From assembly GCA_964537615.1 (NCBI GenBank), contig CAZIBX010000001.1, positions 1,929-65,928 on the forward strand: a DNA stretch of 64,000 bases, written 5' to 3'. This document shows, one piece after another, positions 1,477 to 49,562 of this stretch. The DNA comes from an uncultured Pseudomonadales bacterium (GTDB taxonomy: Bacteria > Patescibacteriota > Microgenomatia > UBA1400 > PJMF01). Within the stretch, counting starts at the first letter, position 1, and every line of letters starts with the position of its first letter. Below the pieces are notes generated by a model. That model worked only from the letters and a program-made list of their open reading frames with translations. It had not been told where the DNA came from and did no database searches. The position numbers and the translations under genes were made by a program.

Positions 1477-1566
1477 CGCCTACAGCATACCAAATGAGTT
1501 CTCTGTTTGCCCGCTCTCATCCGCCTCTTCCCTACCACCTCACCCTTGAAGTACAATACAGTGGTA

Positions 1567-2838
1567 ATGAGACGGCTCCTGAATATCATCTGGGTTGTGG
1601 TGTTGTTTGTGGTTTTCTTGAGCAGTAGCCAAAAGGCGTCTGCTGCTACTTGTCCCGGTTTACATCAAGGTGTAGGAAATAACGTTTTGCTACCTATATA
1701 TACGCCGGGAGCGAGTCACACGGTGGTTATTGACACCTCGACGTTTAATAAGAACTACAATTACTACTTCAAAGTCAAAAATGGCAGTTTTTCTGATGAT
1801 GAAGCTCAAACACCATCTTTTAGAGTCGACGCTTCAAACAGTATCACAGATGGCTGTAACCAGATTACGGTTGATGCTACCAATAATAAAGTTACTTGGG
1901 TAATTTCTTGTCGGGAAGCACTACAAAATGCTGGTGACCGAGTTCAAGAAAAAGACCCTCATTATGTGATTGCTTATAGATGGGAGGCCGGGTCTAACCG
2001 GTTTTGTGACGTGGGTGCATACTACACTTCAGACAATGTGCTGAAAAACTCGACTTGTAAATTGGTTATCTGGCAAGGCGATGACTCACAACCAGGTATG
2101 GCTTGTTACGCCCCTGGATGTATCGAGAAAGACAAAGATGTCACTATCAGAGTAGACGAGTTAAAAATCAATAACCAACCATACAACGGCAATGTTTCAA
2201 TGGATTTAGCTGCAGGTGGAACCGACATTGTCCAAGATAGAGTTGTCGCCATCACCAATGGTATTGGAATGACTAAGTTTCCTCCGCGAAGCAAAACAAA
2301 ACATTCTGTGATTGTGAAGGTCAGAAATGCTGACGGTGGCCTTCGGATCGTTCCTGGTTGCAGAGCTAGTTTTAATGTTTCTGACTACTGTAGTCCCAAT
2401 CAGTGTAATAAAACCAGAACAGTTATGACTCCAGGAGACTTAAACGGGGCTCCGTTTAAAATCTGTGATCAAATCGACAGTGGTTTGCAGGACAGTCAGG
2501 GACGCAACATGAAAAATCTCTGTATCCAGTGTATCGGTGGTGATGAAGAAGGTCGGGAAGGTATGTGGACGGCGTTGGGCTGTATTCCTCGCCAACCAGA
2601 GCAAATCGTCAAACGTTTCTTGCTACTGGGACTGGGGATGGGAGGTGGGGTTGCTCTACTGATGATTCTGGTGGCTGGCTTCCAGATTTCTACCTCACAA
2701 GGTAATCCAGAACAGTTTAATAAAGCCAAAGAAATGCTAGTCGGAGCCATTACCGGTTTGCTGTTTATCATTTTTTCGGTGACGATTTTGCAGTTTATCG
2801 GTTACTCGATTTTGAAAATACCAGGATTTGGAGGGTAA
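1567..2838 (+). CDS. Large Cys-rich secreted ectodomain protein with a C-terminal pilin-like two-TM anchor (first member of the paralog array)
   Basis: The internal Met at 1567 gives a clean signal peptide (MRRLLNIIWVVVLFVVFLSSSQKASA). A ~330-aa Cys-rich ectodomain follows. The C-terminus (…LGLGMGGGVALLMILVAGFQISTSQGNPEQFNKAKEMLVGAITGLLFIIFSV…) has the same TM–polar loop–TM architecture as the downstream small paralogs. Confidence 0.6.
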   Translation: MRRLLNIIWVVVLFVVFLSSSQKASAATCPGLHQGVGNNVLLPIYTPGASHTVVIDTSTFNKNYNYYFKVKNGSFSDDEAQTPSFRVDASNSITDGCNQITVDATNNKVTWVISCREALQNAGDRVQEKDPHYVIAYRWEAGSNRFCDVGAYYTSDNVLKNSTCKLVIWQGDDSQPGMACYAPGCIEKDKDVTIRVDELKINNQPYNGNVSMDLAAGGTDIVQDRVVAITNGIGMTKFPPRSKTKHSVIVKVRNADGGLRIVPGCRASFNVSDYCSPNQCNKTRTVMTPGDLNGAPFKICDQIDSGLQDSQGRNMKNLCIQCIGGDEEGREGMWTALGCIPRQPEQIVKRFLLLGLGMGGGVALLMILVAGFQISTSQGNPEQFNKAKEMLVGAITGLLFIIFSVTILQFIGYSILKIPGFGG

Positions 2839-2840
2839 AG

Positions 2841-3575
2841 ATGAAAAAACAACTGATGAGGATAGTCACGACTTTACTATTTGTTGGTTTGGTTGCGTTT
2901 TACCCCCATCCAGCTCAAGCCCAAACTTGTGGTTTTGCTACTAGAAACCGCTGTGACGTTTGTACTAATAACCAAAAGTGTGTCAGTGGCCTAGGTTGGC
3001 CAATTTATGATTGTAGAACTGTAGCCGGTCAGTGCGGCGCTCCCTGGCCCACCACCTGCAACCAAGGCAACTACTTGCGCTGTGACGTTTGTCCATCTGG
3101 CCAACAATGTCTCAAGAGTGGCTCCAACTATTACTGTGGCACCCCCACCACGGCTTGCGTTACCCCCGCTCCCACTTCACCACCTGGCACCACCCCCACC
3201 ACCCCACCCACCCCCACCATGTTTTCTCCCTACGATCCACCGACCAACGAAACTTTTGACATGGTCAACCCGCTCAAGATCGGTGGTGGCACTGATCTGG
3301 CGTCAGACCAACCATCTCAATTTGCCGGCCAACTTTCCTCTCCAGGAGGCATCGTTAGTCGAGTTCTGACTTATGCCTTTCCTCTGGCCGGCTTGATTCT
3401 TTTTGCCATGCTGACTTGGGGAGGATTTGAGATGATCATGGGCGCTGCTAGCAAAAAATCTCTTGACGCTGGTAAACAACGCGCTACCGCTGCGGTTGTT
3501 GGGTTTTTGATCCTGTTTGTGTCATACTGGATATGGCAAATACTAGAAGTAGTTTTTGGCATCGTGGTGTTTTAA
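2841..3575 (+). CDS. T4SS pilin-like (VirB2/TrbC-like topology) two-TM protein with a duplicated Cys-rich module and Pro/Thr linker
   Basis: A GGAGGG RBS lies 6 nt upstream and there is a signal peptide. Two copies of the motif RCDVC-x-x-x-Q-[KQ]-C-[VL]-x-SG are followed by a TPPGTTPTTPPTPT linker. The C-terminal hairpin is LILFAMLTWGGFEMIMGAASKKSLDAGKQRATAAVVGFLILFV. Confidence 0.6.
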   Translation: MKKQLMRIVTTLLFVGLVAFYPHPAQAQTCGFATRNRCDVCTNNQKCVSGLGWPIYDCRTVAGQCGAPWPTTCNQGNYLRCDVCPSGQQCLKSGSNYYCGTPTTACVTPAPTSPPGTTPTTPPTPTMFSPYDPPTNETFDMVNPLKIGGGTDLASDQPSQFAGQLSSPGGIVSRVLTYAFPLAGLILFAMLTWGGFEMIMGAASKKSLDAGKQRATAAVVGFLILFVSYWIWQILEVVFGIVVF

Positions 3576-3580
3576 AAAAT

Positions 3581-4027
3581 ATGCAGAAAAAATACTTAAA
3601 AAATTGGTCACAAAAAATTTGGAAACTTTTCAGCTTGGCTGGCGGTCTGGTTATAACTGCTACTCAACTAACTTCAACTGTTTGGGCTCAACCCGCACCA
3701 CCTTGTGATCCCGGCTCCGGTGGTATTAACCTGGGTGACTGTCTGCGTTTAAGCGATGACTCTCTGGTTTCCAGTGTTTATAACAACCCAGCAGCTCTGG
3801 TTAACTTGCTGGCCCGCAATTTATTTGTGGTGGCCGGAGTGTTTTTGTTTGGCTTATTTTTACTGGCCGGACTGAAAATTATCGCGTCAGGCAAGGGCGG
3901 CAAACAAGGCCTGGACGAGGCCAAAACTATGCTGACCTCGGTGGCTATCGGTTTTGCTATCATGTTTGCTGCCTACTGGATCGTCCAGATCGTCAAAATC
4001 ATTACCGGAGCCAATATAGTTTTATAA
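3581..4027 (+). CDS. T4SS pilin-like two-TM protein (paralog)
   Basis: The start is moved to the ATG at 3581, just after the upstream stop; the track ORF 3533 overlaps the previous gene. There is a signal peptide and the C-terminal motif FLLAGLKIIASGKGGKQGLDEAKTMLTSVAIGFAIMFAAY. Confidence 0.55.
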   Translation: MQKKYLKNWSQKIWKLFSLAGGLVITATQLTSTVWAQPAPPCDPGSGGINLGDCLRLSDDSLVSSVYNNPAALVNLLARNLFVVAGVFLFGLFLLAGLKIIASGKGGKQGLDEAKTMLTSVAIGFAIMFAAYWIVQIVKIITGANIVL

Positions 4028-4038
4028 TCAGGATCACT

Positions 4039-4407
4039 ATGCCAGCAGATGATTTCATAAACATAGTCGGCAACATTCAGCCACCACCAGGGGTCGAACA
4101 ACAAATTGCTGATTCCGGCCTGGCACCCAATGAAGTAGCTCTGTTGTTTTTTGTTAATAAGATGTTAATTGCCGTGACTGTGGTGATGGGTATCTGGGTG
4201 TTATTTAATCTGGTCTTGGCTGGAGTCTCGTATATTACATCCTCCGGTGATGCCAAAGCTCATACTCAAGTCAAAGATCGGCTGATTATGAGTGTATTGG
4301 GCATTATATTGATCGTGGGGGCTTATACTTTGACTGCCGTAGTCAGTTATGTCATTTTTGGTGACCCCAACTACGCTCTTAACCCCACTATTACCGGACC
4401 CAACTGA
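4039..4407 (+). CDS. T4SS pilin-like two-TM protein (paralog)
   Basis: Hairpin VLAGVSYITSSGDAKAHTQVKDRLIMSVLGIILIV. The stop overlaps the next start (TGATG at 4404–4409), indicating translational coupling. Confidence 0.55.
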   Translation: MPADDFINIVGNIQPPPGVEQQIADSGLAPNEVALLFFVNKMLIAVTVVMGIWVLFNLVLAGVSYITSSGDAKAHTQVKDRLIMSVLGIILIVGAYTLTAVVSYVIFGDPNYALNPTITGPN

Positions 4408-5021
4408 TGTCAAACCTGATCTCAATCACCACTCAAAAGATTAAACAGCTTTTTGCCAAAACACATGTTTGGACACTTCTGTTGATAGTTGGACTGATAC
4501 TGATTGCGCCGATTTCTGTCAGTGCCCAAAACTGCCCTTCCGGCTATCAATGTGAGGGGGGGTGTGAGTATATCGGTCACTGCGTTTCCAACCGAACCTG
4601 TATTTTGGTGCCACCCTTTTACATCCGGCCTGGTGCTAGAAACTGCGGATCTTTTATCATCGGCCGAGTTAATCCTCCTCAAGGAGTAGCCGATTACAAC
4701 ATGCAGACCGCCCTCCAACCAGGATCAGGCAATATCGGGATTTTGTTGTTTGTTTCCAATGTCGTTAAGTTAATTACGGCCGTGGGCGGAATTCTGATTC
4801 TGATCAACTTCGTGGTGGCGGGCATTACTTTGATCGCACAAGCTGGCAATACCCAAGCCATGACCGGCGTCAAAGATAAGTTGACTTATGGCCTGATTGG
4901 TTTGGTCATCATGGTGGCGGCCTACACGGCTATGGCTCTAGTGGGTCAAATTATCTTCGGCAATCCCTTGTTTATCATCAATCCAGATCTTAACGCCTTG
5001 GGTGCTTTATCTGGACCGTAG
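4407..5021 (+). CDS. T4SS pilin-like two-TM protein with an N-terminal Cys-rich ectodomain (paralog)
   Basis: Signal peptide, then a CPSGYQCEGGCEYIGHCVSNRTC Cys cluster. Hairpin FVVAGITLIAQAGNTQAMTGVKDKLTYGLIGLVIMVAAY. Confidence 0.55.
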   Translation: MSNLISITTQKIKQLFAKTHVWTLLLIVGLILIAPISVSAQNCPSGYQCEGGCEYIGHCVSNRTCILVPPFYIRPGARNCGSFIIGRVNPPQGVADYNMQTALQPGSGNIGILLFVSNVVKLITAVGGILILINFVVAGITLIAQAGNTQAMTGVKDKLTYGLIGLVIMVAAYTAMALVGQIIFGNPLFIINPDLNALGALSGP

Positions 5022-5046
5022 TAAGCGTTATACTATCTACACAAAT

Positions 5047-5433
5047 ATGCCACTCTCTTCCAAACTCGCCCAGTTCGGCCAAGGCCTCCAACCACCCACC
5101 GACGCTTTCAGCACCGGCTCAACCAATGATCTGACTCAACCGGTCAATGCTTTTACCAATCTTGAGTACATGGTGTCCAACGTCATTGCTATCGTGACTG
5201 CTCTAGCTTCCCTGATGTTTATTTACTACTTTATCATGGCAGCTATCAGCTGGATTAACTCCGGTGGTGACTCTGGCAAGCTACAAACCGCCAGAAACCA
5301 GATGCTGAACGCAGTTCTGGGTTTGGTGCTACTGGTCGCCAGTTATGCCATCGTAGGTCTGATTGGTACTTTGTTTGGCCTTGACTTGCTCAATCCTGGT
5401 AAAGTGCTCAAAGGTTTAGTTCCCACACCATAA
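5047..5433 (+). CDS. T4SS pilin-like two-TM protein (paralog)
   Basis: Internal Met chosen as start. Hairpin FIMAAISWINSGGDSGKLQTARNQMLNAVLGLVLLVASY. Confidence 0.5.
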   Translation: MPLSSKLAQFGQGLQPPTDAFSTGSTNDLTQPVNAFTNLEYMVSNVIAIVTALASLMFIYYFIMAAISWINSGGDSGKLQTARNQMLNAVLGLVLLVASYAIVGLIGTLFGLDLLNPGKVLKGLVPTP

Positions 5434-5438
5434 CCAAT

Positions 5439-5942
5439 ATGTTCAAACTTCACTTACTAAATCAAACTTTCAGAACCGGTGCGGTGTTTTTGACAGTGAT
5501 AATAACTATGGTGATAGCCACTTTACTGATGGGTGGTAGACCAGTCATGGCCCAGATCACCAACCCGGCCATCGGTGAGCTGGGTGGAAATGATAATTCT
5601 GGTCAGTACAGCCCTGATCCAGCGGCCGTCACTGCAGCCCAGTCAGGGGCGTCATTTTTGGCCCAGTTTGTCCGACTGTGGGGCAATGTAGTCACCATCG
5701 GAGTTATCTTGGTTTTAGTCATGTTCATCTGGGGAGCGATCGAGTGGATTACGGCCGGTGGAGATGCCGGCAAGATCGGCAAGGCCCGCGACCGGATGTT
5801 GCAGTCGGCCATCGGCTTACTGGTTCTAGTCAGTTTGTTTATCTTGATTGGTTTCTTGAGCGGAACTCTGTTTGGCGATACACTTGATATCCTCAAGCCC
5901 AAGTTTGTCACCCCCAATACCAACACCGGAGCCACACCATGA
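5439..5942 (+). CDS. T4SS pilin-like two-TM protein (paralog)
   Basis: Signal peptide. Hairpin MFIWGAIEWITAGGDAGKIGKARDRMLQSAIGLLVLV. The start overlaps the upstream stop. Confidence 0.55.
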   Translation: MFKLHLLNQTFRTGAVFLTVIITMVIATLLMGGRPVMAQITNPAIGELGGNDNSGQYSPDPAAVTAAQSGASFLAQFVRLWGNVVTIGVILVLVMFIWGAIEWITAGGDAGKIGKARDRMLQSAIGLLVLVSLFILIGFLSGTLFGDTLDILKPKFVTPNTNTGATP

Positions 5943-6457
5943 TTTTCAGCTCACTTGTCGCCCAACTACCAGACACCGTACCTTTTGATATCGGAGAGGC
6001 CGGAGCCACGATTATTCCCCATGCCGTAGGCAATAATACGCCGGATACTTACCAGGCAGCTTTTGGTAATTTCTTGGGCAGTATTTTGTCTTTTGTGATC
6101 GTTATTGCAGTCATCATGGTGTTTCTATATCTAGTCTGGGGAGCTATCGAGTGGATTACTTCTGCTGGTGACAAAGGCAAACTGGAAAAAGCCCGCAACC
6201 GGATGTTTCAAGCAGTGATTGGTATTATTGTGTTATCCGGCACTTTGGCTTTTCTGATGATTATCCAACAGTTTTTGGGTATTTGTGTGTTAAGTATCAG
6301 TGGTAAGTGTACCGGGACTTCCAGCGCACCAACTGAACTCTATAGATGCTTGCCCATCAACCAGTGCGGGCCACCTACCAACTCTGGAGTGAGTGTCGGT
6401 AACTGTTCTCCTCACCGGGTGGGCTATGTCAACTGTCGATTCCGGGCTACACCTTAG
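5939..6457 (+). CDS. T4SS pilin-like two-TM protein with a C-terminal Cys-rich tail (paralog)
   Basis: ATGA start/stop overlap with the upstream gene. Hairpin LYLVWGAIEWITSAGDKGKLEKARNRMFQAVIGIIVL. The Cys-rich extension (…CVLSISGKCTG…CLPINQCGPP…NCSPHRVGYVNC) is at the C-terminus instead of the N-terminus. Confidence 0.55.
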   Translation: MIFSSLVAQLPDTVPFDIGEAGATIIPHAVGNNTPDTYQAAFGNFLGSILSFVIVIAVIMVFLYLVWGAIEWITSAGDKGKLEKARNRMFQAVIGIIVLSGTLAFLMIIQQFLGICVLSISGKCTGTSSAPTELYRCLPINQCGPPTNSGVSVGNCSPHRVGYVNCRFRATP

Positions 6458-6559
6458 TCACTACGCCTTGATCAGACAGCAACTTGACACTCGAGAATAA
6501 AGCACTGTACAATATAAAAGTACTTTGTAGCAATCATTAATAATAAAAAAGGGAGCTGT

Positions 6560-6976
6560 ATGAAACAGTCGCTAAAAACAATCACCGCCTTGGGTGGTGT
6601 GATGGTGGGTACTCTGCTAGCCAGCGTGCCACAAACGATGGCCGCCATTGACGTAGGCACCATCGAAGGTACCAAGGGTATGGCCAATAACTTTGGTAGC
6701 TTTCTTTCCAGCTTGCTGACCATCGTCATGGCTATCGCCGCTCTGGCTGTTTTCATTTACTTGATCTGGGGTGGTATCGAGTGGATTACCAGCGGTGGTG
6801 ACAAAGGCAAAACCGAGACTGCCAGAAACAAGATCACAGCCGCAGTCATCGGTTTGATCGTCTTGGCTGCAGCTTATGCCATCTTGTCCATCGTGCTGCG
6901 ATTCCTGGGCTTCTCCAGCATTACCAACGTGTTTGAGAACGTCAAGGTGATCACGCCAGGTGGCAGTGGCATTTAA
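6560..6976 (+). CDS. T4SS pilin-like two-TM protein (paralog; canonical member)
   Basis: AAGGGAG RBS and a signal peptide. Hairpin IYLIWGGIEWITSGGDKGKTETARNKITAAVIGLIVLAAAY. Confidence 0.6.
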   Translation: MKQSLKTITALGGVMVGTLLASVPQTMAAIDVGTIEGTKGMANNFGSFLSSLLTIVMAIAALAVFIYLIWGGIEWITSGGDKGKTETARNKITAAVIGLIVLAAAYAILSIVLRFLGFSSITNVFENVKVITPGGSGI

Positions 6977-7000
6977 TTAAACTTTAAGATCAAAAGTTTA

Positions 7001-7031
7001 ACACCCTCCCAAAGTTTGGGAGGGTGTTTTG
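7001..7031 (+). terminator. Rho-independent terminator inside the paralog array
   Basis: Perfect GC-rich inverted repeat CACCCTCCC-aaagttt-GGGAGGGTG at 7003–7027, followed by TTTT. Confidence 0.6.
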
Positions 7032-7057
7032 GTAATTCTGATATAATAAGTGGTCAT

Positions 7058-7606
7058 ATGTCCATCAAGCACTTCGTACTCACTCTTGTTCTCGTTTTTG
7101 GTATCAGTTATGGCGTAGTTGGCTCCACTCCAGCCATGGCCGCCGGTACAACTGGCACAGATACCAACGCCGGTCAAGTTCAAACTCAAAACACTGACGG
7201 CTCACTCAACTTGACCACCAGCGTCAACACCGCTACGGCTTCCACTACCCCCAATCCTGATCTAGAGTACTTACCGCCTGGTTTTGCCAAATCTTTTCCT
7301 GATCTTTTGGCCAGTATTTTGACCTTGCTGGTAGCAATTGTAGCTATCTTGGTTTTTGCTTACCTGATTTGGGGTGGACTCAACTGGATTACCAGCGGAG
7401 GCGATAAGGGCAAAACTGAGACCGCCCGCAATAAAATCATGGCTGCCTTGATCGGGCTGATCATCATCGCTTCGTCATACGCCGTGCTTCAGATCGTGTT
7501 GCGGTTTTTGGGCTACAGCTCATTGATCGATGCTTTTAATAAAATCAAACCCATATCTGAACCGGGTCGTAACTTGCGGGTTGAACTGACTGTAGAGAAA
7601 GCATAG
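7058..7606 (+). CDS. T4SS pilin-like two-TM protein (paralog; near-duplicate of 6560..6976 in the anchor)
   Basis: Start placed at the internal ATG at 7058 (MSIKHFVLTLVLVFGISYG… signal peptide). Thr/Asn-rich ectodomain. Hairpin AYLIWGGLNWITSGGDKGKTETARNKIMAALIGLIIIASSY, ~85% identical to the previous paralog anchor. Confidence 0.6.
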   Translation: MSIKHFVLTLVLVFGISYGVVGSTPAMAAGTTGTDTNAGQVQTQNTDGSLNLTTSVNTATASTTPNPDLEYLPPGFAKSFPDLLASILTLLVAIVAILVFAYLIWGGLNWITSGGDKGKTETARNKIMAALIGLIIIASSYAVLQIVLRFLGYSSLIDAFNKIKPISEPGRNLRVELTVEKA

Positions 7607-7615
7607 GATAAAGCC

Positions 7616-8035
7616 ATGTGGCGATTACGCAAGTGGTTAAAACACATCGGTTTAATTTTATCTGTCATAGCATTGTCGATTCCGGGCCGAGTTCTGGCTC
7701 AAACTGTGGAGTGGAACGGAGTTTGTGTCGGAGGAGCTGATCAAGATGTGGCAACCATCCAAGGGCTGGAGTGCTTGATCGCCAATGTTTTTACGGTTTT
7801 TATTACTTTGTTGGGGTTGCTGGGTTTTGTCATGTTCATCATCGCCGGATTCAAGTGGATGACATCTGGTGGTAACAGTAAAGGTATGGAGTCAGCCAGA
7901 GGCGCTATGACTTATGCCGTGCTGGGTCTGGTGATCAGTTTAAGTGCTTTTATCATCATCAACTTAATCGCCGAGTTTACCGGAGTTAATATCATCCGGA
8001 CATTTTCTATTCCCACATCTGATTTGGGTATGTAG
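7616..8035 (+). CDS. T4SS pilin-like two-TM protein (divergent last paralog)
   Basis: Signal peptide. Hairpin FIIAGFKWMTSGGNSKGMESARGAMTYAVLGLVISL. Confidence 0.5.
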   Translation: MWRLRKWLKHIGLILSVIALSIPGRVLAQTVEWNGVCVGGADQDVATIQGLECLIANVFTVFITLLGLLGFVMFIIAGFKWMTSGGNSKGMESARGAMTYAVLGLVISLSAFIIINLIAEFTGVNIIRTFSIPTSDLGM

Positions 8036-8134: not shown

Positions 8135-11100
8135 ATGTGCAAAAACCGGATTTTGTCTGGATTGATAAGTTTTTGGCTGATATGTTTACTGGTGGTAGGA
8201 CTAGGGTGGTCATTTTCTAGACCTGCTTATGCAACTTATGGCTTGCCCGAGTTTAAAACTGATTTGACCTGGTTACTGGGCAACGGATCAGTGTCTGGCG
8301 CCCTACTGTTTAACGCTTTCCGCACCAATCCCGACCCCAGCTTCACCAAACATGTTTTAAGTGACGAGCAAATTCAAGATTTGTGTGATGGCGACTGCGG
8401 AGCCAAAAACATCGGTGTTAACATGGCTACCTTTTATAAAGGCGGTGACTATGCCAGAGCCAGAACTCACAAGATGAACTGGTCACTGGAGATCATCAGG
8501 GCCAACACTTCACCTCAAACTGTAGCCGATATCATCAATAAGGAAGGCGTAGGTAACGTCATCATCAGAATCGGGGTAAGTGGTTCGGCCGAAGGTTTTG
8601 AGAGTCCAGCCACTTATGCTAATTTTTTGCGGGCGGTGGCCAGTCAAGTCGGCGGTAAGCCGTTTTATGCTATCGCCGGCCCCAACGAACCAGATTTGGA
8701 AAAATGGCTTGCCCAGGGCTGTTCTGCGCCCGAACCCAGTGCCGCTGAAGCAGTGAGACGGGCGTACTACAGTTGTATCGGCAAACCATTGGCTGATTAC
8801 ATGAACGCTATGATTTCTGCCGGCCTACCCACCAATGTCCGCCTGCTGTCGCCGGCTTTTAACTTAACCAGCTTTACTTTTGCCGACAACCCCGGTCAAC
8901 CCAGTGGTATCCCAAGGGCTATGAGATCAGCCGGAGCCAAGTTTGACAAACTTTATGCTCTCTCTGGCAACATCTACCCCAACGGTGACAGCATGCAAAA
9001 CATCTGGAATCGTAATGTAGCCGGTGTGGTAGCCGAGTTAGGCAAGCCGATGATAATTACCGAAACCGGCCCGTGGAACAACTTGTTGACTAACCCGGGA
9101 GGACTGGATCTGTCCAAATACCCTGATTACAACGCCTCTGACGGGCAAGTTTATATCAACCCCATCTTGGGACTGAACGGCCCGGCCCGCAATATCGCCA
9201 CCATCAGAAACGACTTGATTAACCAAGGATATGAGGCACGCTGTGCTACCCCGGGCTTTAAAATCGAACTGACCCAATCCGGCCAGGACTGGATGGACGA
9301 CTTTGTGGATCAGTACACGCCCGGTAAAGTTTTTGGTGGAGGTCAAAATGCTTATATCAAAGGCCGACCGGCTCCCGGCCCTTATGGTGAAGGTGACCCT
9401 GTCCGCTCGACTTTAACCATCGATTATCGAGATGTAGAAGTACCCCTGTTTCGGGATGTGGGGGGCAAAATGTTTCTGACCTCATCACTGGAAGAATTTT
9501 TCGGGTTCAAAGACATCACGGCCCAAGACAACACTATCTCTGAAGTTAACTCGTCGGCGATCAACTCTCTCTTATCCAATCTGCAACGCTGTCAGGTAGC
9601 GGCCACGCTTTTAATCAAACAGGAAGAAATGTGTCAAAAACTGCAAAGTCCCGATGCTTGTGCGCTTTATCCGCGCCAAATTCAGGGTACTGATCTGAAA
9701 GTCCAGGATCTGCTTAATCGGTACAAACAAGAGGCGGGATCGGATTACAAGTCTGACGCGACTGTCAGACGGGTCTGTGAAAAACTGCAAGCAGACAGTC
9801 AAGCCAACCCAGAATTAAAACAAGGCCTGTCACTTATGCCACTACATCTCGACCGAGCCTACCGCCTGGCTTTTCTGGTGACGGCTATTCAGTTGCGCTA
9901 TCCCACCTGGGATACCATGTTTCACTTTTTTACCCACCCCAACGCCGGGCCGGTAGACGGGCCGGAAAAACCCACCACAGCTATTCTGGTTAATGCGTTC
10001 AAAGTGCCGGATATCACCACCAATAAAGGCACCGCCACCAGTGGCCAAACACCCTGGACTGACCCGGCCATTTTGACCCGCAACTCTCTTTTGCCCAAAA
10101 ATACTGCTACCAAACTGGAAGAAAAAGCTCAAGAAAAACGCGATACGCTGAAGCTGGCGGCCAGCTACTATGATCAAGCCGAGCAGTCTGAAAAAGATGC
10201 AATTTTTTGCGTAGCCAAAGAAGCTCCGACCGGTATTGGTGGCCCAGAGTGTAATGACGAGTTGTCCAAGGCTTTGACCGACATCATCAATGGCCAAGCC
10301 AAACTTAATCTTCCTCTACTGGAATGTCCACAGGATCCGGCTGACTACCAGATAGAAACCAGCTTAGGTATCACTGACCCGGGATCACTGGATCCGCGCA
10401 CCGATCCCAGTAAGGTTTACAGCGTGCCATTTGGAGCTCAACTGTTGGAAAATATCTTCCGGACTGTGCCTGTGGGAACCCGATACTCTACAGCTGATTC
10501 AACCCATCAAATAGAACCACTTGGCGAAAGCGACCCGATGTTTGCGGAAACTTGGCGCACTGGCGATCCAGAAGGAGATAATCCTCTACCAGGAGTGAGA
10601 GATTGGGGACTGAAAAGCATGTTTCATGTAGTGACACAGATGCAGGACAGGGGTTTTCCTTACTGCTGTAAAGATCAGCGCATCGTCAAACATTATCTGG
10701 TTTATCCAGAAGGATACGACCTGCAAACCGTCGAGGATACTCTGGCCGGTTCTTTTTTCAGCCAAACTCAACTGACGGCTTTACTGGAATCAGAAAAAAA
10801 TTATGATCGGGTCAAAGTTGAGAACGACTCGATTGGGTTTGAGGGTGGACAGTTGAGTAAAACGTTTGCAGATAGCCAGAATACTTCTCCCAACAATAAT
10901 GTTCAGGGCGATCCGGCTTGCGCCAAAGAAGAACGCCTGCCAAATGGTGATACCAGGACTTATTATGCCCTACCCTGCGATCGGACTTTTGAGTTTAAAA
11001 TTGGTCAAAAAAATGAGGCCTTGTCGGCGGGCATACTGGGAGGTAAGTTGGGCTTCTGGCTAAGAGAAGTCCAAAAAACCCTCAACTCTTCTGCCAGTGT

Positions 11101-11599
11101 GGCCCGAGCTTACCTGGATACCTGCGAAACCACCGAGCAGTTTTTGACTGGTCGCTGTGGCGATCAAACCATCACCGCTCCCAAGCGGGAAGAGGACGAC
11201 TGTACCGGTCTCGGGTGTCCGGGAGCACCCGCTCCCTCTGGCCCGGCTCCAACTGGTGTTTGTGATACCAACCAGCCCAACTTGGTGACTGATTTAAGTG
11301 TTGACCAGAACCGCAACTGGTGGCTGGATGTGCGTTGCCCGCAGTGTCAAAGTACCTGGGGAGATATCAGTTTGGACGTAACTACCAACGTGGGTAACTT
11401 CCACTGGGGGCCCAACAACTTGCCCCAGGGGGGGATGTTACGTTTTCCTTGCACTTCATGCAATCCGTCCAGTGTACAAATTTTGCCTTCTGCCGTATCT
11501 GGCGGGCAGTTTTGTATCACTATGAAGCTGACTTCCAACGCCGCCGGCAATCAGTGTCAGCAAGATAGAGAGCGATTTTTATGTGCGCCGGTACCGTAG
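8135..11599 (+). CDS. Large secreted protein with an N-terminal GH-A clan (GH5-like) glycoside-hydrolase domain and a Cys-rich C-terminal region
   Basis: Signal peptide. The sequence AIAGPNEPDLEKW matches the GH5 acid/base NEP signature. About 130 aa later, MIITETGPWNN matches the GH5 nucleophile Glu signature (x-T-E-x-G). The last ~150 aa contain >14 Cys. A TATAAT lies 11 nt upstream of the ATG. Confidence 0.45.
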   Translation: MCKNRILSGLISFWLICLLVVGLGWSFSRPAYATYGLPEFKTDLTWLLGNGSVSGALLFNAFRTNPDPSFTKHVLSDEQIQDLCDGDCGAKNIGVNMATFYKGGDYARARTHKMNWSLEIIRANTSPQTVADIINKEGVGNVIIRIGVSGSAEGFESPATYANFLRAVASQVGGKPFYAIAGPNEPDLEKWLAQGCSAPEPSAAEAVRRAYYSCIGKPLADYMNAMISAGLPTNVRLLSPAFNLTSFTFADNPGQPSGIPRAMRSAGAKFDKLYALSGNIYPNGDSMQNIWNRNVAGVVAELGKPMIITETGPWNNLLTNPGGLDLSKYPDYNASDGQVYINPILGLNGPARNIATIRNDLINQGYEARCATPGFKIELTQSGQDWMDDFVDQYTPGKVFGGGQNAYIKGRPAPGPYGEGDPVRSTLTIDYRDVEVPLFRDVGGKMFLTSSLEEFFGFKDITAQDNTISEVNSSAINSLLSNLQRCQVAATLLIKQEEMCQKLQSPDACALYPRQIQGTDLKVQDLLNRYKQEAGSDYKSDATVRRVCEKLQADSQANPELKQGLSLMPLHLDRAYRLAFLVTAIQLRYPTWDTMFHFFTHPNAGPVDGPEKPTTAILVNAFKVPDITTNKGTATSGQTPWTDPAILTRNSLLPKNTATKLEEKAQEKRDTLKLAASYYDQAEQSEKDAIFCVAKEAPTGIGGPECNDELSKALTDIINGQAKLNLPLLECPQDPADYQIETSLGITDPGSLDPRTDPSKVYSVPFGAQLLENIFRTVPVGTRYSTADSTHQIEPLGESDPMFAETWRTGDPEGDNPLPGVRDWGLKSMFHVVTQMQDRGFPYCCKDQRIVKHYLVYPEGYDLQTVEDTLAGSFFSQTQLTALLESEKNYDRVKVENDSIGFEGGQLSKTFADSQNTSPNNNVQGDPACAKEERLPNGDTRTYYALPCDRTFEFKIGQKNEALSAGILGGKLGFWLREVQKTLNSSASVARAYLDTCETTEQFLTGRCGDQTITAPKREEDDCTGLGCPGAPAPSGPAPTGVCDTNQPNLVTDLSVDQNRNWWLDVRCPQCQSTWGDISLDVTTNVGNFHWGPNNLPQGGMLRFPCTSCNPSSVQILPSAVSGGQFCITMKLTSNAAGNQCQQDRERFLCAPVP

Positions 11600-11606
11600 G
11601 AAAGTT

Positions 11607-12026
11607 GTTTCGTAAATAATCTAGTTTGTTTGGACATTAAACAGAACTCAACCAACCTATGTTTTATCGATAAGTAATGTTCTTGTTGCGTAAATAACCT
11701 CGTTTGTTTGACTATGACAAGAGTTAACTAAACTCATGATAGTTTATTGCGGTGTAAACACCTACTGTATTGGTTATATATGTCTTTTCAAATTTAGTCT
11801 GCACAAACAAGGTTATTTACTCCACAACCCTATCTCCTGAAGCCAATATGTCTGTCTGAAGGAAAACAAATACAAGTCAACTTTAATCGGAACAAATATT
11901 GTTCTTTGTGCAGGACACAACTTGCAAAATAAGTATTGAGATCATTTAAGAGCTTATTTACACCGCACTAACACCAGAACAATCCAAACAACCCCGTGTG
12001 TCCAAACAAAGAATAATGTTTGTGGA
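11607..12026. repeat. Repeat-dense 450-bp non-coding spacer between convergent genes
   Basis: There are at least 4 copies of a ~25-nt motif (GTAAATAAyCTnGTTTGTTTGGACA). Two are direct (11607–11636, 11685–11714) and two inverted (11798–11828, 11997–12026). A second inverted pair, TGCGGTGTAAA (11748) / TTTACACCGCA (11958), is also present. No ORF support. Confidence 0.6.
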
Positions 12027-12052
12027 GATGGGAAATTGGGGGTATTTAGTTT

Positions 12053-12835
12053 CTACTTACCCTGCCAAACAGTTTTGGGCAATTTTTTGATGACTGACTT
12101 GCTGGGCTTCCAGACACGACTGGCGCCGGCTTGTAACAACTCCGCGACTGTCATAAAAGTATCTGCCCCGACACTACTTGACCTCAATCGATCAGTAACA
12201 CTATCGATACCACTAAGTAAATCAGTGCCGGCAGGCCCGGTCAGGGTCAGGCCACTGGCTTTAATCAGTAGAAAAGCCAGTTCAGACAGAGAAGGTCGCT
12301 GGTCTAGAGTTAAAACTACACTGGCAAACTCCACCGGCTGATCACAGAGAGCGATGCTGGAAGTATTTTTATACTCGTCTTCATAACCGATGTATAACTG
12401 GGCTAGTGAATCCAGGTCTTTCACCCCGACAAAAATCAGTAAGTCCGCCTCAAAGCCGGCATAAGCAAACTCCACGGCTTTGATGTCCAGGGGTTTGGCT
12501 GATGACTTGGGTTTAATCGTCAGGTAAAACCGTTTGTTGGTCTCCCCGATGTGATAACTGATCTTGTCCACCTGTGACTCGACATAGGGAAAACTGATCA
12601 ACAAGTTGCGATTGCCCACTTCTGTTTCCAGATGAGCCAAGCCCTTGGTGATGGGTGAGGTGATTTTTTCTGGACAAACCAACTGGATGGATTTGCCATT
12701 TTCCGTCAAGCTAGTAGCCAGGCCGGCGGCAGTGGCCAGAGCGTCAATTGACGGGCTGGGAGGTAAAATCACTATGACTTGCTGGGACTGATTGATCAGG
12801 GTTGCTGCCGATGTCACAGCAGAAGTGTCAGTCAT
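12053..12835 (-). CDS. Hypothetical cytoplasmic protein, possibly a degenerate DHH/DHHA1 (NrnA-like) fold
   Basis: The N-terminal VIVILPPSPSIDALATAAGLATSL resembles DHH motif I/II (…SPDGDAIGS…) but has lost the Asp residues. A GPAG sits where DHHA1 proteins carry GGGH. This is a weak, sequence-only call. Confidence 0.3.
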   Translation of the reverse strand: MTDTSAVTSAATLINQSQQVIVILPPSPSIDALATAAGLATSLTENGKSIQLVCPEKITSPITKGLAHLETEVGNRNLLISFPYVESQVDKISYHIGETNKRFYLTIKPKSSAKPLDIKAVEFAYAGFEADLLIFVGVKDLDSLAQLYIGYEDEYKNTSSIALCDQPVEFASVVLTLDQRPSLSELAFLLIKASGLTLTGPAGTDLLSGIDSVTDRLRSSSVGADTFMTVAELLQAGASRVWKPSKSVIKKLPKTVWQGK

Positions 12836-14777: not shown

Positions 14778-17750
14778 TCACCTTTGATATTTAAAGACAC
14801 CTTCTACTTGTTGTGCTATAAGTTCGGTCATTTCTTGAGCATTCTCAACTGTTCCAAAGGATGCGTCCAAGGCAACGGTAATTGCTTTTACAGCATCTTC
14901 GCCGATTGCAGTAGTCAAGTAACTTAGTTTTTCTTTAACTTCTTTTAATTTAACTTTATCAACAGCTAACAAGGTTAAACATCTGGAAAAAACATGGACT
15001 ATTGTAATTCTTCTAAAAACATTTTCTGCTCTAAATCTACCGGCAGAAACCTCAAGACCCCAAACGGGAAAAAATGATGCCGCATACTTTACTTCATTCT
15101 GTTCTATTGGCAACTTATTGACATCGAGCACACTGTCACCTGGAGCATGGCTAAACATTTCATACAATCTAGTTATATTTTTGCCGTTGTTGTACCATTT
15201 TTCTATTCCATTGCTAGGTAAGACCAAGTCCCAAGGAATATATTCGTACATTATTCTGCCATCAGTATTAACAAAATCAGCCGCCGTAATAGGTGGTGGA
15301 ATGTAGCCGGGTTGCTCTGGCCATCTCATAACTGGTGTTTCGTTTGCTAATTGGGTTGGGTTGGCACTATAACGTGAAGTATCTGGATCTCTGAATATCA
15401 TATATTGAAGAGGCATGGGAATAACTTGATAATTTCCTTGTGGATTCTGGTGTAGTAACACCAATGGTAGGTTTGCCAAAAACTCAAAATCTGTTAAATC
15501 TTTTTCTCCTAGTGCTGTTAGTATTTTATTTCTTGCAGATGAGGTGTGTGATGCATCAGGCAAGTTGGCTAATCTAAAGCCTATACGTTCCACAATACCA
15601 TCGGGTTCTTTCATCCTTCTCATGTCATATCTTCCAATGTTATCCAATACATAATGTTTTCCATCGGCAGCGGGTGGTAGGTTTGGGTCATACTTTCTAA
15701 ATAAACAGATTGATTCCAAAATTGACGCTGGAGTTGTGCCCCCAATAACACCCTGACTTACATAGTCGAGCCATTGGTTGGCCTTAAACAGGCTATCATT
15801 TGTAAATGGACTTTTTCCAGGAATCATCATTGATTGATGTAATAGCATTGAATGAAAAAGCCAGGCCTGTCGTACTTCTAGAGGAGAAATGTCGTATCCG
15901 TAAAGAAGCATGGCTGTTCTGGAAATTACTGTATGTAAGTTGTTTTTGTAGCTGCTGATGTGTAGTGATTTATAGTAGTTGTCCAACAAAATTATTAGTT
16001 GCTGCTCTTCTTGGTTGGGAGTTCTACCTTCAGCTATAATTTTGTCTTTCAACATTTTGTGTAACTTATTTTTATATAAATCATCTAAAATCCGCATTAC
16101 CTCACCATGGGTAGTGGGAATAAAATCAGGCAAATTAACAAAGCCATCGGGAGATGAAAAATCTCTAATAGAATCTGCTCTAGATGGTAAGTCTCTTACG
16201 TATGCTTTTTCGTTATCGGGTTGAAGGTCGGGGTCTGGATCATGACCATTGCGTGGATGAATAGCTATAGAAAAATCTTGCTCTGTAATAAAGATTTCTG
16301 GAGTTTGTTGTGGAAACTGTCTCGTAGAATCGGTCTTCTGGTCACCAAAACCAAAAATCATGGGTTCTAGTTTCTGTTCTGCAAAAAATACTCTACGCCG
16401 GAAAGACAGTGTGCGCTGAAAAGCTGCATTGTCCAATTTTATTGCATCTCTTTTAAGAGATAGAACTGGATTTTGGCTCGCCTTTTTTTCTATTAAATTC
16501 AATCTGCCAAAACCTCTTTCGCCCGCGATAACAATATCCCATCCACTGGACTGTGTTGCGGCACTATCTTGAAAATAAAAGTTTGAATTTTTTAAGTCCA
16601 GTTCATCGTCTTGCATTCTATGTTCTATGGCTCTTTTTGTTTCCACATAGTCACACAAAAGAACTCTGCTTTCCAAAGAAAAATATTCTGTATCTTGGCC
16701 AAAAGCTCTTATTCTATCAAGCAAACCATAAAGTTTGCTCAGTCTTTCGGCCAATCTATCAGTCATAACTTCAAGCGTTACAGGTCCCAGCTGTTTAATC
16801 CTATCCAGTTCATCGTCTATCTCTTGTCTTAATTGCGTCTCTGTTTCTAGATCGACAGCAGGAGGGCTAGCTTCTGGCTGTGGGGTATAAGGCTGGTCAG
16901 TTGGTTCTTCCAACTCAATTTCTTCATCTACTGAAACTAATGGACTCGATGTTTGTGTGGCTTCGTCCTGTCTTACCTTTTCTATCGCTGCATCTACCAA
17001 CGCGTGAAGATCATCAAAAAAAGTATATAAATCGGGGTTGGATGCACTGTTAACCCTTGCTTCCTGATCATTGATGCGTTGGTGAAATCTCTCGAGGGCG
17101 GAAATAGTTGTTTCGGCAGTTGATTGTCGGTCTTCAAATCTTTTCAGCACCCTAGCTATTCCCTCTAGAATAAGTTTTGAAAAAGAATCCTTATCAAAAG
17201 ATTGTTCTCTAGTAGATCCACTGGCTTCGACTGTTAATGGGTCTTTTTCCTCCAACTTATCAAGCTCGACCATAATAACTTCCACCAACAATAACTGAAG
17301 TAAGCCTAAGCGTTCATTGTCGGCTTCCTGAACTCCTTGGTCCTCTGTCTGTTCAACACCCTCTGTCTCATCTTCGTCCATACCAAATAAATCTTTATGA
17401 GCCATGATCTCTGTCATGGCGCTTTGCGCCTGAAGATTACCTATGAAATCTACAATTTTATCGAATAATCCTCGGAGTTTTTGAGTTCTCTTTTCTTTTA
17501 TAGCAATCTGTAAAGCTGCGTGTGTGTCAAAATACAATTGCCTAATGTCATTATTTTTTGGTTGTTTTAAAAAACTGGATATTTCAGTTAATTGTTCTTG
17601 GTCAACAACTTCTTGTTTTAAAATATCAGCAACAACTTCAGAAATTTCATCCATGTCAACTCTGGTTTTACCAATCTCAACCAGTTGACCTGCCGTTACT
17701 TTTTTACTCAACAAATCTTTGACGGATAATCCTTTACTGCTTTCGGCCAT
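14778..17750 (-). CDS. Large (990 aa) soluble hypothetical protein, AT-richer than neighbours, on the opposite strand inside the T4SS-like locus
   Basis: Long clean ORF with no TM segments and no recognisable catalytic motif. It has acidic/Gln-rich N-terminal low-complexity segments. Its nucleotide composition is visibly AT-richer than the flanking genes. Confidence 0.6.
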   Translation of the reverse strand: MAESSKGLSVKDLLSKKVTAGQLVEIGKTRVDMDEISEVVADILKQEVVDQEQLTEISSFLKQPKNNDIRQLYFDTHAALQIAIKEKRTQKLRGLFDKIVDFIGNLQAQSAMTEIMAHKDLFGMDEDETEGVEQTEDQGVQEADNERLGLLQLLLVEVIMVELDKLEEKDPLTVEASGSTREQSFDKDSFSKLILEGIARVLKRFEDRQSTAETTISALERFHQRINDQEARVNSASNPDLYTFFDDLHALVDAAIEKVRQDEATQTSSPLVSVDEEIELEEPTDQPYTPQPEASPPAVDLETETQLRQEIDDELDRIKQLGPVTLEVMTDRLAERLSKLYGLLDRIRAFGQDTEYFSLESRVLLCDYVETKRAIEHRMQDDELDLKNSNFYFQDSAATQSSGWDIVIAGERGFGRLNLIEKKASQNPVLSLKRDAIKLDNAAFQRTLSFRRRVFFAEQKLEPMIFGFGDQKTDSTRQFPQQTPEIFITEQDFSIAIHPRNGHDPDPDLQPDNEKAYVRDLPSRADSIRDFSSPDGFVNLPDFIPTTHGEVMRILDDLYKNKLHKMLKDKIIAEGRTPNQEEQQLIILLDNYYKSLHISSYKNNLHTVISRTAMLLYGYDISPLEVRQAWLFHSMLLHQSMMIPGKSPFTNDSLFKANQWLDYVSQGVIGGTTPASILESICLFRKYDPNLPPAADGKHYVLDNIGRYDMRRMKEPDGIVERIGFRLANLPDASHTSSARNKILTALGEKDLTDFEFLANLPLVLLHQNPQGNYQVIPMPLQYMIFRDPDTSRYSANPTQLANETPVMRWPEQPGYIPPPITAADFVNTDGRIMYEYIPWDLVLPSNGIEKWYNNGKNITRLYEMFSHAPGDSVLDVNKLPIEQNEVKYAASFFPVWGLEVSAGRFRAENVFRRITIVHVFSRCLTLLAVDKVKLKEVKEKLSYLTTAIGEDAVKAITVALDASFGTVENAQEMTELIAQQVEGVFKYQR

Positions 17751-22941: not shown

Positions 22942-24192
22942 ATGAAAGACCACCCCATCCCCCAAGACGTCACCGGTTATAAGTTTCATATCGTAGGTAA
23001 CATGACACTCAAGCAGTTTGGTTTGATTGTTTTTGGCGTGATTGTGGCCTTTATTATTTATCAACTGAAGTTACCGGCTTTAATCGGCTGGCCGTTTATC
23101 GTGATTTTTGCCGGCGGTGGTCTGCTGGCAGCGTTTATTCCGATTGAAGAAAGGCCACTGGATCACTGGATTTTAACTTTTATCAAAACACTCTACCGAC
23201 CCACCCAATTTTTCTGGCGCCGGGAACCCCATGTGCCAGCTGTGTTTGACTATGTGGCCAACAATAATCAAAACACCCCCCCTCCGACCGATTTGGCCCC
23301 GGCCAAAAGAGCACGGATTCATGACTATCTCAACTCACTCCATGACCCAGGAGATAATTCGGAAACAGATGAACACAGCCCCCAACTGGCCCAGATTTTG
23401 GCTAACTTTCACTCATCTCCTGATCCAGTTAATCAGACAGCGGATACTGCCCCTCCACCTAGTATGACGGTCAAAGTCAGGGCTCTGGCCCCCAATCCGG
23501 AAGACCAAACCAACCCGGAGAAAATGCCTGTTAGTGCCACCACCACCATCGTGGACTTTTCAGCTGCGACACAAACGACATCAGAACCGTTGATTGCTCC
23601 AGAACCACTAATGACTCCAGAGCTAACAATAACCCCAATACCACCAGCCAACCCAGAGCCAGAAGTCGACCGGACCATTTCCCAAGCCGCCAGCACAGTC
23701 CAACTACCCACTCAAACTATCACAGCCATTGATCACTCCGATCAAATCCAGAATGTGAACGAAAGCCCAATCCTACAACCCCAGCTGGAATCTACGCCAG
23801 TCACTCCGCCTGACCCAACTCCACCCAAGCCAGACAACACCAACACCATTTCCAGCATCACGCCAGAATCACTAGCTGAAAACACCCAAGTCGCTCAACA
23901 ACCAGACAACCTCCCCTTTCCTTCTGCGCCCAGCCAACCCAATGTAGTGGTGGGTATGGTGGTTAATCAAAAGCAAGAATTACTGCCAGGAGCTATAATA
24001 GAAGTGGCTCTAAACAGTGGCCAAGTCGTCAGGGTAGTACGCACCAATGCTTTGGGCCAATTCTTTGTGACTACACCATTACCAAATGGTAGTTATGTCC
24101 TGCGGGCAGAAGTGGACGGGCTACAGTTTGCCCCCCAAAGTCTTGAGGTAATTGGTCAAACAATTGCTCCAATTTTATTCACCGCCAGTTGA
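22942..24192 (+). CDS. VirB3/PrgI-like two-TM protein with a long Pro/Thr-rich extension
   Basis: N-terminal TM hairpin (FGLIVFGVIVAFIIYQLKLPALIGWPFIVIFAGGGLLAAFIPI) followed by WILTFIKTLYRPTQFF, reminiscent of PrgI/VirB3-family proteins found directly upstream of VirB4. A ~250-aa PT-rich low-complexity region is followed by a small C-terminal domain. Confidence 0.45.
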   Translation: MKDHPIPQDVTGYKFHIVGNMTLKQFGLIVFGVIVAFIIYQLKLPALIGWPFIVIFAGGGLLAAFIPIEERPLDHWILTFIKTLYRPTQFFWRREPHVPAVFDYVANNNQNTPPPTDLAPAKRARIHDYLNSLHDPGDNSETDEHSPQLAQILANFHSSPDPVNQTADTAPPPSMTVKVRALAPNPEDQTNPEKMPVSATTTIVDFSAATQTTSEPLIAPEPLMTPELTITPIPPANPEPEVDRTISQAASTVQLPTQTITAIDHSDQIQNVNESPILQPQLESTPVTPPDPTPPKPDNTNTISSITPESLAENTQVAQQPDNLPFPSAPSQPNVVVGMVVNQKQELLPGAIIEVALNSGQVVRVVRTNALGQFFVTTPLPNGSYVLRAEVDGLQFAPQSLEVIGQTIAPILFTAS

Positions 24193-24277
24193 AACTAGCC
24201 AGAATACAGTTTGTCGCCCGCACCAGTTAATAAGTAGCGATAACCGGTTGAAGCAGAAGGTTGAATCCTGTATTCTT

Positions 24278-25135: not shown

Positions 25136-25138
25136 ACC

Positions 25139-28825: not shown

Positions 28826-28910
28826 AACCCGGCTTTTTACTGTGCATAAAAATTCACAAAACCAAGCTTGTTTGCTTGTCGATAGTAACTTTTTCCATTA
28901 TATGCCGCCG

Positions 28911-49546: not shown

Positions 49547-49562
49547 TTTTCGACGAAAAAAA

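Follow-up and report, generated by a model that had tools for sequence, protein, structure and literature searches.

A conserved hairpin-rich spacer, inverted in a relative, between two converging genes on a Patescibacteria chromosome

Introduction

Patescibacteria have small, streamlined genomes in which non-coding DNA is scarce, and to our knowledge their regulatory RNAs, repeat elements and transcript-end signals are almost wholly uncharacterized. What, then, is a repeat-dense gap of several hundred base pairs doing between two of their converging genes? The gap considered here lies in a 64,000-nt stretch of contig CAZIBX010000001.1 (referred to below as the window), which is a chromosomal piece from Patescibacteria (Candidate Phyla Radiation, CPR) of the Microgenomates/Woesebacteria-Pacebacteria type. 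It is a non-coding spacer of 453 bp and 34% GC (11600-12052), which separates two convergent stop codons. On its left is the gene for a Cys-rich protein of 1154 aa (8135-11599, plus strand), which has no family match and is the final gene of a type IV secretion system (T4SS) pilin operon; on its right is the gene for a protein of 260 aa (12053-12835, minus strand), which is kept across Microgenomates and Pacebacteria.

An earlier reading of the letters alone (the sequence-only reading) had put the gap at about 450 bp, in agreement with the measured length. It saw at least four copies of a motif, in both orientations, and offered three interpretations: a non-coding RNA (ncRNA) with repeated structural modules, a cluster of protein-binding sites similar to an origin of transfer (oriT) or a partition site for the nearby T4SS, and a decayed miniature inverted-repeat transposable element (MITE). 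Here, the spacer is compared with those of relatives. Most of it is a core that is inverted in the closest relative with a complete junction, is conserved in blocks, and keeps its main stem by compensatory changes. We tentatively favor the view that it may be a selected hairpin cluster that would work in either orientation at the two gene ends.

Motif copies in the spacer

The spacer carries six copies of a motif of about 25-33 nt, with A, B and G on the plus strand and C, E and D on the minus strand. Copy A (GTTGTTTCGTAAATAATCTAGTTTGTTTGGACA, 11604-11636) is an exact match to the consensus and begins 4 nt past the stop codon of the 1154-aa gene. It is followed by B (11683-11714), C (11795-11828) and G (11885-11921), the last being a variant type, then by E (11950-11973), a partial copy consisting of the 5' half only, and finally by D (11996-12030). 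Copy D is an inverted copy of G (24/28), and its match to the consensus is limited to the 3' half, TTTGTTTGGACA. The original count of at least four therefore stands for A, B and C, which match the consensus, and is extended by G and E, while D qualifies in its 3' half only. A loop motif (LM, CTCCTGAAGCCAATATGTCTGTCTGAAGGAAAACA) occurs once in the window, at 11830-11868 on the plus strand. The segment A-B-C-LM-G forms the core (11604-11921, plus strand, 318 bp).

With up to three mismatches allowed, GTAAATAAYCTNGTTTGTTTG has three matches in the window, all of them within the spacer, where 0.01 would be expected, and a blastn search of the spacer against the window gave no further match. Perfect inverted 8-mer pairs number 25 in the spacer, compared with 3.9 ± 2.5 expected, a value that none of 500 dinucleotide shuffles reached; there are also four perfect inverted 11-mer pairs (0.07 expected). 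One 11-nt inverted pair, TGCGGTGTAAA / TTTACACCGCA, had been described as separate from the motif. It exists, and extends to 15 nt at 93% (11744-11758 / 11957-11971), but it is not separate: its right arm, TTTACACCGCA, belongs to copy E, and the pair is not conserved in the relative L005 described below.

The genome is less tightly packed than was first supposed, because the window has seven other gaps of 210-737 bp between open reading frames (ORFs) of 120 aa or more. Their density of inverted repeats is in no case comparable, however: six have none, and the gap at 49547-49962 has a single 52-nt near-palindrome.

A CRISPR array was considered and rejected, as it had been from the letters alone. 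The copies occur in both orientations, the one direct pair reported is A and B (78 nt start to start), and the other intervals are irregular. A small protein gene was also rejected. No ORF is conserved, and a 121-aa ORF present in L005 is interrupted in the window.

Predicted hairpins

The motif GTAAATAAYCTNGTTTGTTTGGACA has no internal dyad, and pairing occurs between separate copies. The result is two bulged hairpins of about 145 nt each. Hairpin 1 (11683-11828) has copy B as its 5' arm and copy C as its 3' arm, which form 25 stem pairs interrupted by a 3x3 internal loop that is conserved; the terminal loop of about 95 nt is partly structured. Its predicted folding energy is -39.6 kcal/mol on the plus strand and -43.2 kcal/mol on the minus strand (z-scores -4.4 and -6.1). 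Hairpin 2 (11886-12030) lies beside the end of the 260-aa gene and is formed by copy G as 5' arm and copy D as 3' arm, with energies of -37.3 and -37.1 kcal/mol (z-scores -4.1 and -2.4). For the whole spacer the z-score is about -3 on either strand. Copy C is complementary to A, B or G, which gives alternative pairings, and G is thus an alternative partner of C.

The core is inverted in related genomes

Among relatives with a complete junction, the closest is L005 (ENA ERZ27258500), whose 260-aa protein is 79% and whose large protein is 85% identical to those of the window. It has a spacer of 562 bp at the same place. In blastn, both flanks align on the minus strand (11500-11599 with L005 2213-2114, and 12044-12148 with L005 1561-1457), whereas the core aligns on the plus strand (11604-11921 with L005 1569-1887, E = 1e-51). 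The opposite strands of core and flanks mean that the 318-bp core is inverted relative to both neighboring genes.

Both arrangements are backed by independent assemblies. In the Logan contig L004, copy A comes straight after the 1154-aa gene, confirming the junction seen in the window, and the Logan contigs L001-L003 confirm its right side: past the 260-aa gene they carry D, E and half of copy G. The L005 arrangement is seen again in L006, a third lineage of 76% identity, in which 54 nt of the spacer are visible and an A/B-type copy comes straight after the 260-aa gene.

Outside the core, the tails of the spacers are not homologous between the two genomes. In the window the tail consists of E and D; D is specific to the window lineage, and no conservation of E was found in L005. 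In L005 it contains two extra copies of LM (40-64 nt), one direct and one inverted, making three in all. The direct copy is part of a direct duplication of about 64 nt (L005 1781-1845 / 1933-1994, about 88% identical), and the inverted copy is at L005 2055-2094. The spacer is still growing by local duplication in the L005 lineage. Both genomes have two hairpins of about 145-150 nt, one at each gene end, with energies from -36 to -46 kcal/mol and z-scores from -2.4 to -6.1. As second hairpin the window has G:D, whereas L005 has LM2:LM3 (150 nt, adjoining the large gene, -46 kcal/mol), and these come from different lineage-specific duplications. Each lineage has made its second hairpin independently and from different material.

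Conservation of the core

When the window is compared with L005, the four-fold degenerate sites of both flanking genes show 40-45% identity, which is essentially saturation. Identity in the core is 70% over all alignment columns, with a MAFFT mean column identity of 84%, and by this yardstick the core is conserved well above the neutral expectation. Identical runs of 32, 21, 16, 16, 13 and 11 nt are clustered (permutation p < 5e-5) and coincide with G, C, A, B, LM and a TTGGTTATATA block, while the linkers are variable and contain indels. The invariant blocks are 11886-11917 in copy G (32 nt, with the near-palindrome GAACAA-ATA-TTGTTC), 11799-11819 in C, 11621-11636 in A, 11691-11706 in B and 11845-11857 in LM. 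The sequence-only reading had suggested neutral decay as the probable explanation should the motif be absent elsewhere and the region untranscribed and poorly conserved; this case does not apply, the core being conserved in L005 (no motif was seen in 80 GTDB loci).

The stem of hairpin 1 has 49 of 50 cells paired in the comparison with L005. Changes affect 9 of the 50 columns, and comprise four double compensatory changes and no one-sided change, in a single pairwise comparison for which about 0.25 compensatory pairs were estimated under independent substitution. The internal loop is kept, and there are further compensatory changes in a small internal hairpin. In both genomes, hairpin 1 is more stable on the minus strand of the core than on the plus strand: the difference in the window is that given above, L005 has -44.8 compared with -36.3 kcal/mol, and RNAalifold gives -55.2 compared with -40.6. 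This is because three mismatch positions that are A.C on the plus strand read G.U on the minus strand.

Distribution of the spacer

In 78 GTDB relatives, the median gap after the homologue of the 260-aa protein is 16 bp, and in 67 of them a homologue of the large protein converges on it. The gap is 5 bp in L095, 23 bp in L007, and 78 bp in L094 (GCA_029780895.1), where the large protein is 73% and the corresponding 261-aa protein 56% identical; the gap of L094 has no significant similarity to the spacer. The motif is absent from all of these loci. Six of the 78 have gaps of more than 200 bp. Four of these six were inspected and none is repeat-dense; one of them (L050) has tandem 27-bp G+C-rich repeats. 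Given the tight junction in relatives, the spacer is a lineage-specific gain.

Searches for further copies were made with the motif and an nhmmer profile over about 1 Mb of related loci (the 80 GTDB loci), with no match, and 12 kb of L094 likewise lacked a second copy. Two scans of JGI metagenomes for the motif gave zero matches. IMG/VR gave only two distinct single-copy chance matches, one of them identical in four contigs of one IMG metagenome, and two further scans gave zero; plasmid and phage collections contained no motif. The data fit a single gain in the ancestor of the three lineages, lasting maintenance of the blocks that form the hairpins, a single inversion of the core, and ongoing local duplication that put one hairpin at either gene end.

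The 78-bp gap of L094 (5996-6073) has a history of its own. The large gene ends 30 nt sooner in this genome, and the gap retains a remnant, CCGGTACTAA, of what in the window is C-terminal coding sequence. Judging from this remnant, part of the gap is a decayed gene end. A possible precursor of the motif at this empty site, TTGTTTCAATAAT, was dropped, since its alignment scores are no better than those of shuffled sequences.

Contig ends within the spacer

Logan contigs assembled with k = 31 from at least four samples end exactly at 11640 (coming from the left) and at 11899 (coming from the right), and the L006 contig ends (at 1811) 15 nt past its first motif copy. This suggests that the populations contain a second allele or structural variant, or an extra copy that shares the outer blocks. 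A simple inversion (A-D, A-C, or 11641-11898) was considered as the origin of the break points and rejected, because the positions do not coincide with matching inverted repeats.

Comparison with known element classes

A search of the whole window against Rfam gave no matches at the gathering thresholds. With E-values up to 10, the two complete spacers gave only chance-level matches (E ≥ 1), to eukaryotic families; the families tested include 6S, HEARO, OLE, ROOL and GOLLD. No sigma-70-like promoter or intrinsic terminator is common to both genomes. A terminator scan of the window found one site, at chance level, within the coding sequence of the 1154-aa protein (11489-11506), and none in either spacer. 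As to the ncRNA suggested earlier, its structural modules are found in the hairpins (z-scores -2.4 to -6.1) and the four compensatory changes of the stem, while a free-standing gene is not supported by any Rfam match, promoter or terminator. The rod-like RNAs of the 6S type share with the spacer an imperfect hairpin of about 145 nt, internal bubbles, a conserved structure and variable linkers. They differ in that the spacer lacks a 6S match, a promoter and a terminator, and in that its stems are copies of one repeat motif.

The proposal of an oriT- or partition-like site is not supported. The window ORFs that were scanned against Pfam and NCBIfam contain no relaxase, coupling protein (T4CP), ParB-type, recombinase, transposase or RAYT-like domain (RAYT being the transposase associated with the repetitive extragenic palindromic elements discussed below). 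An oriT was rejected on these grounds, and because relatives with the same pilin/VirB4 locus have no spacer. Since the element is absent in relatives that share the T4SS locus, it is no general part of that apparatus. A parS site was rejected because no TGTTNCACGTGAAACA-type site is present in the spacer, the single match with three mismatches in the window (35659) being at chance level, and because no ParB was detected. A replication origin (oriC) was rejected too, as no box similar to TTATCCACA with at most one mismatch was found in 11600-12052; such boxes cluster at 28796-28954. A diversity-generating retroelement (DGR) was also rejected: between the spacer and the 3' end of the 1154-aa gene, as template and variable repeat, the only shared sequence is an 11-nt chance match, and there is no reverse transcriptase nearby.

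The ends of the core form an imperfect terminal inverted repeat of 12 nt, GAAAGTTGTTTC / GACACAACTTGC (reverse complement GCAAGTTGTGTC), with 10 of 12 positions matching, while the ends in L005 match at about 7 of 12. No direct repeat of the target-site duplication type was found around 11604/11921 or at the ends of the whole spacer. MITEs and the Correia (Neisseria), ERIC, RUP and BOX elements resemble the spacer in being small (100-450 bp), non-coding, hairpin-forming, restricted to lineages, intergenic and present in either orientation, and some of them serve as terminators or RNA-processing sites. In those families, however, the terminal inverted repeats are clear, target-site duplications occur, and a genome holds tens to hundreds of copies, whereas the spacer has a weak terminal repeat (10/12, in one genome), no duplication, and one copy in the sequence searched. 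The suggestion of a decayed MITE is compatible with the data as far as a lineage-specific, non-coding insertion of varying orientation is concerned. Its conserved blocks and compensatory changes, however, show that the spacer is not decaying, a target-site duplication is lacking, and the searches yielded no second copy.

Invertons such as fimS and hin are also segments of a few hundred base pairs, rich in inverted repeats, that occur in both orientations relative to fixed flanks. They have a promoter facing the 5' end of a gene and a recombinase nearby, whereas the spacer has a 3' gene end on either side, the window yielded no recombinase, and the two orientations of the core are seen in different lineages.

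A further likeness is to the repetitive extragenic palindromic (REP) elements of Enterobacteria and Pseudomonas and the bacterial interspersed mosaic elements (BIMEs) that they form. In the spacer, units of alternating orientation stand at 3' ends, in the order A+, B+, C-, G+, E-, D- between the two stop codons. REP/BIME elements are likewise extragenic and non-coding, lie at converging genes or 3' ends, and consist of short motifs that alternate in orientation with variable linkers; their copy arrangement differs between strains, as the arrangement of the spacer differs between lineages. Their hairpins stabilize 3' ends in read-through transcripts or attenuate read-through, which for the spacer is a proposal. 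There are also differences. The REP unit is itself an imperfect palindrome of about 35 nt, while the motif of the spacer is not self-complementary and its stems join copies that are 75-95 nt apart. REP elements have hundreds of dispersed copies and a RAYT transposase; the spacer has one known locus, and the scanned ORFs of the window include no RAYT-like gene.

Genomic surroundings

Homologues of the flanking proteins are found in metagenome-assembled genomes of Woesebacteria, Pacebacteria and Microgenomates. Beyond the source contig, the exact proteins were seen only on Logan contigs, all of them short, and the best identity to the 260-aa protein in the GTDB loci is at most 46%. One homologue of the 260-aa protein contains a DHH domain. 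For the 1154-aa protein, the C-terminal 400 aa gave no matches as a query, while the full-length query gave homologues.

The 1154-aa gene is preceded by a row of T4SS-pilin paralogues (1507-8035), which contains at least five, and probably more, tandem T4SS_pilin (PF18895) genes encoding proteins of 139-443 aa. Further T4SS genes, PrgI/VirB3-like and VirB4, are at 22942-27178, followed by dnaA (27311), dnaN (29054) and housekeeping genes. The spacer thus adjoins T4SS genes and is 15 kb from dnaA. Chromosomal T4SS clusters of Patescibacteria are located near dnaA and mostly lack relaxases (PMC12102498), and the layout of the window agrees with this. The cluster of DnaA-box-like sites at the dnaA-dnaN junction (28796-28954) comprises one perfect TTATCCACA and two sites with one mismatch, and is a likely oriC. 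The minimum of the cumulative GC skew, at about 36-38 kb, is away from it.

Other convergent junctions in the window are 7-70 bp wide, with the exception of 37601-38121. This is a 521-bp spacer at the minimum of the cumulative GC skew, and has no inverted repeats, no Rfam match and a modest fold z-score of -2.1. The near-palindrome mentioned above (49557-49606, 52 nt) is 77% self-complementary and lies in a 416-bp gap upstream of an alpha/beta-hydrolase gene.

A low-GC island at 14778-17750 (38-40%, compared with about 47% elsewhere) encodes a 990-aa protein, for which the sole match is a weak one to ABC-3C CTD12, a defense-associated domain. The position of this gene looks variable, being occupied by a gene for 632 aa in L094 and for more than 1054 aa in L095. 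At the far end of the window (59595-63995), a protein of at least 1466 aa is encoded beside a group of three genes that are type IV pilin-like (N_methyl); it has a weak match to Peptidase_S74 (endosialidase chaperone; E = 9e-4, 20.0 bits, below the Pfam cut-off of 22 bits). The Peptidase_S74 domain is typical of phage tail fibers.

Discussion

The explanation that we favor, while holding it only tentatively and somewhat short of an even chance, is that the spacer may be a selected, orientation-independent hairpin cluster at two converging 3' ends, similar to REP/BIME elements in its action but not a member of that family. Short modules, namely the family of about 33 nt comprising A, B, C, G, D and E, together with LM, would have been duplicated locally, both directly and in inverted form. 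The DNA, or a transcript entering from either of the converging genes, would then fold into two long bulged hairpins of about 145 nt, one per gene end, and these hairpins would themselves be the selected feature. They may act symmetrically, as a barrier or 3'-end structure on the read-through transcripts of both genes. The effect would be that convergent read-through and antisense RNA are blocked and 3' ends are protected, by analogy with REP/BIME and other intergenic palindromic elements. In one lineage the core of about 318 bp would have turned around at no cost, the probable cause being recombination between its inverted copies or template switching from one to another, and the second hairpin would have been built afterwards in each lineage from a different module. 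The flip would be tolerated because a hairpin cluster of this kind works in either orientation. The explanation draws on the tightness of the junction in relatives, the block-wise conservation of the core above the neutral level, the compensatory changes in the B:C stem, the presence of one hairpin per gene end in both genomes, and the inversion of the core, with both arrangements backed by independent assemblies. Similar fold stability on both strands is what is expected for an orientation-independent element, and the lack of comparable inverted repeats in the other large gaps of the window also counts in favor.

Several observations weigh against this explanation. The covariation is drawn from one pair of genomes, the whole sample being two complete spacers and one 54-nt fragment, and quasipalindrome template-switch mutation or arm-to-arm conversion can mimic compensatory changes without selection. 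The spacer has no U-tract or GC-rich stem of the intrinsic-terminator type, and relatives manage without any spacer at this junction, so that a terminator or insulator is not required there. REP/BIME elements are dispersed, whereas no other copy of this one is present in the window or in about 1 Mb of related loci. Finally, the greater stability of the hairpin 1 stem on the minus strand of the core, in both genomes, hints at a strand-specific RNA rather than a symmetric element.

This last point leads to the main rival, which we consider possible but doubtful, namely that the core, of about 320 nt, is the gene for a new structured ncRNA, which would either be an independent unit with a promoter of its own or be cut out of a 3' UTR, and could be inverted like any small gene. 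The core is conserved far beyond the neutral level over its full length, its blocks being invariant and its linkers variable; both the B:C stem and the small internal hairpin show compensatory changes; and the minus-strand fold is the stabler one in both genomes. The pairing of C with A, B or G has a switch-like look, and the inversion resembles that of an autonomous unit. On the other hand, the stems are long, AU-rich, near-perfect repeats of one motif, more like a repeat element than like evolved RNA folds, and the lineage-specific tails have been rebuilt from copies of core modules. There is also no Rfam match, no promoter or terminator conserved between both genomes, and no homologue in the other sequence searched (JGI metagenomes and about 1 Mb of related loci).

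A variant that we regard as rather more doubtful is that the core encodes an undescribed structured RNA, confined to one Microgenomates/Woesebacteria-like lineage and situated where the T4SS-pilin operon ends, in which the invariant C and G blocks would form exclusive pairings, B:C or C:G, as a switch, and/or that the interior of the spacer is an actively rearranging site whose structure is polymorphic in natural populations. An active rearrangement site or polymorphism would account for the k = 31 assemblies that stop at 11640 and 11899.

It is unlikely, in our view, that the spacer is a non-autonomous mobile or selfish element (MITE- or PATE-like), or a relic of one, that landed in a permissive 3'-3' junction, perhaps repeatedly and in either orientation, and that has no host function. 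The block-wise conservation and the compensatory changes argue for constraint, although identity above that of neutral sites could also mean that the element is younger than the split of its hosts. The presence in one lineage only, with empty sites in close relatives, the opposite orientation in sister genomes, the lack of coding capacity and the terminal inverted repeat at the core ends (10/12) are all features of a mobile element, and the identical Logan break positions in at least four samples fit extra copies or structural variants. Against it stand the weak terminal repeat of L005, the lack of a target-site duplication, and a window in which neither a transposase nor a recombinase was detected. 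The window, 12 kb of L094 and about 1 Mb of related loci contain no second copy, and the JGI metagenomes, IMG/VR, plasmids and phages gave only chance matches. In addition, the A-end lies beside the 260-aa gene in both L005 and L006, which fits one gain and one inversion.

Less probable again is an array of double-stranded DNA sites for a sequence-specific protein, such as a regulator, a nucleoid or partition protein, or a relaxosome at oriT. Because the spacer lies between two 3' ends, there is no promoter, and thus nothing to regulate at the site. Six irregularly spaced copies in both orientations, with the motif cores as the most conserved positions, and a 32-nt invariant block with the dyad GAACAA-N3-TTGTTC would suit such an array, as would the position adjoining T4SS genes and 15 kb from dnaA. 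The compensatory changes, however, occur in the less conserved flanks of the arms, which a model of double-stranded sites does not predict. Relatives that share the T4SS also lack the array, the searches found neither a relaxase nor a ParB or recombinase in the window and no parS in the spacer, and the DnaA boxes at 28796-28954 are outside the spacer.

Neutral junk, in the sense of decaying duplicated DNA with neither function nor mobility, would agree with the relatives that manage without a spacer and with the different tails of the two lineages, but is highly improbable for a core that is 70-84% identical when four-fold sites are saturated at 40-45%, and that has non-random conservation (p < 5e-5) and maintained stems.

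With two genomes, the spacer is currently a lead of moderate interest and not a discovery. It keeps its stems by compensatory changes, tolerates inversion, and has regrown its second hairpin independently in two lineages. A non-coding gain of about 430 bp that is conserved despite synonymous saturation is a tractable example of selected hairpin DNA or RNA in Patescibacteria. A discrete RNA, if the spacer yields one, would represent a new class; should the spacer instead be a transcript barrier, it would reveal a way of insulating convergent genes in organisms without canonical terminators at such junctions.

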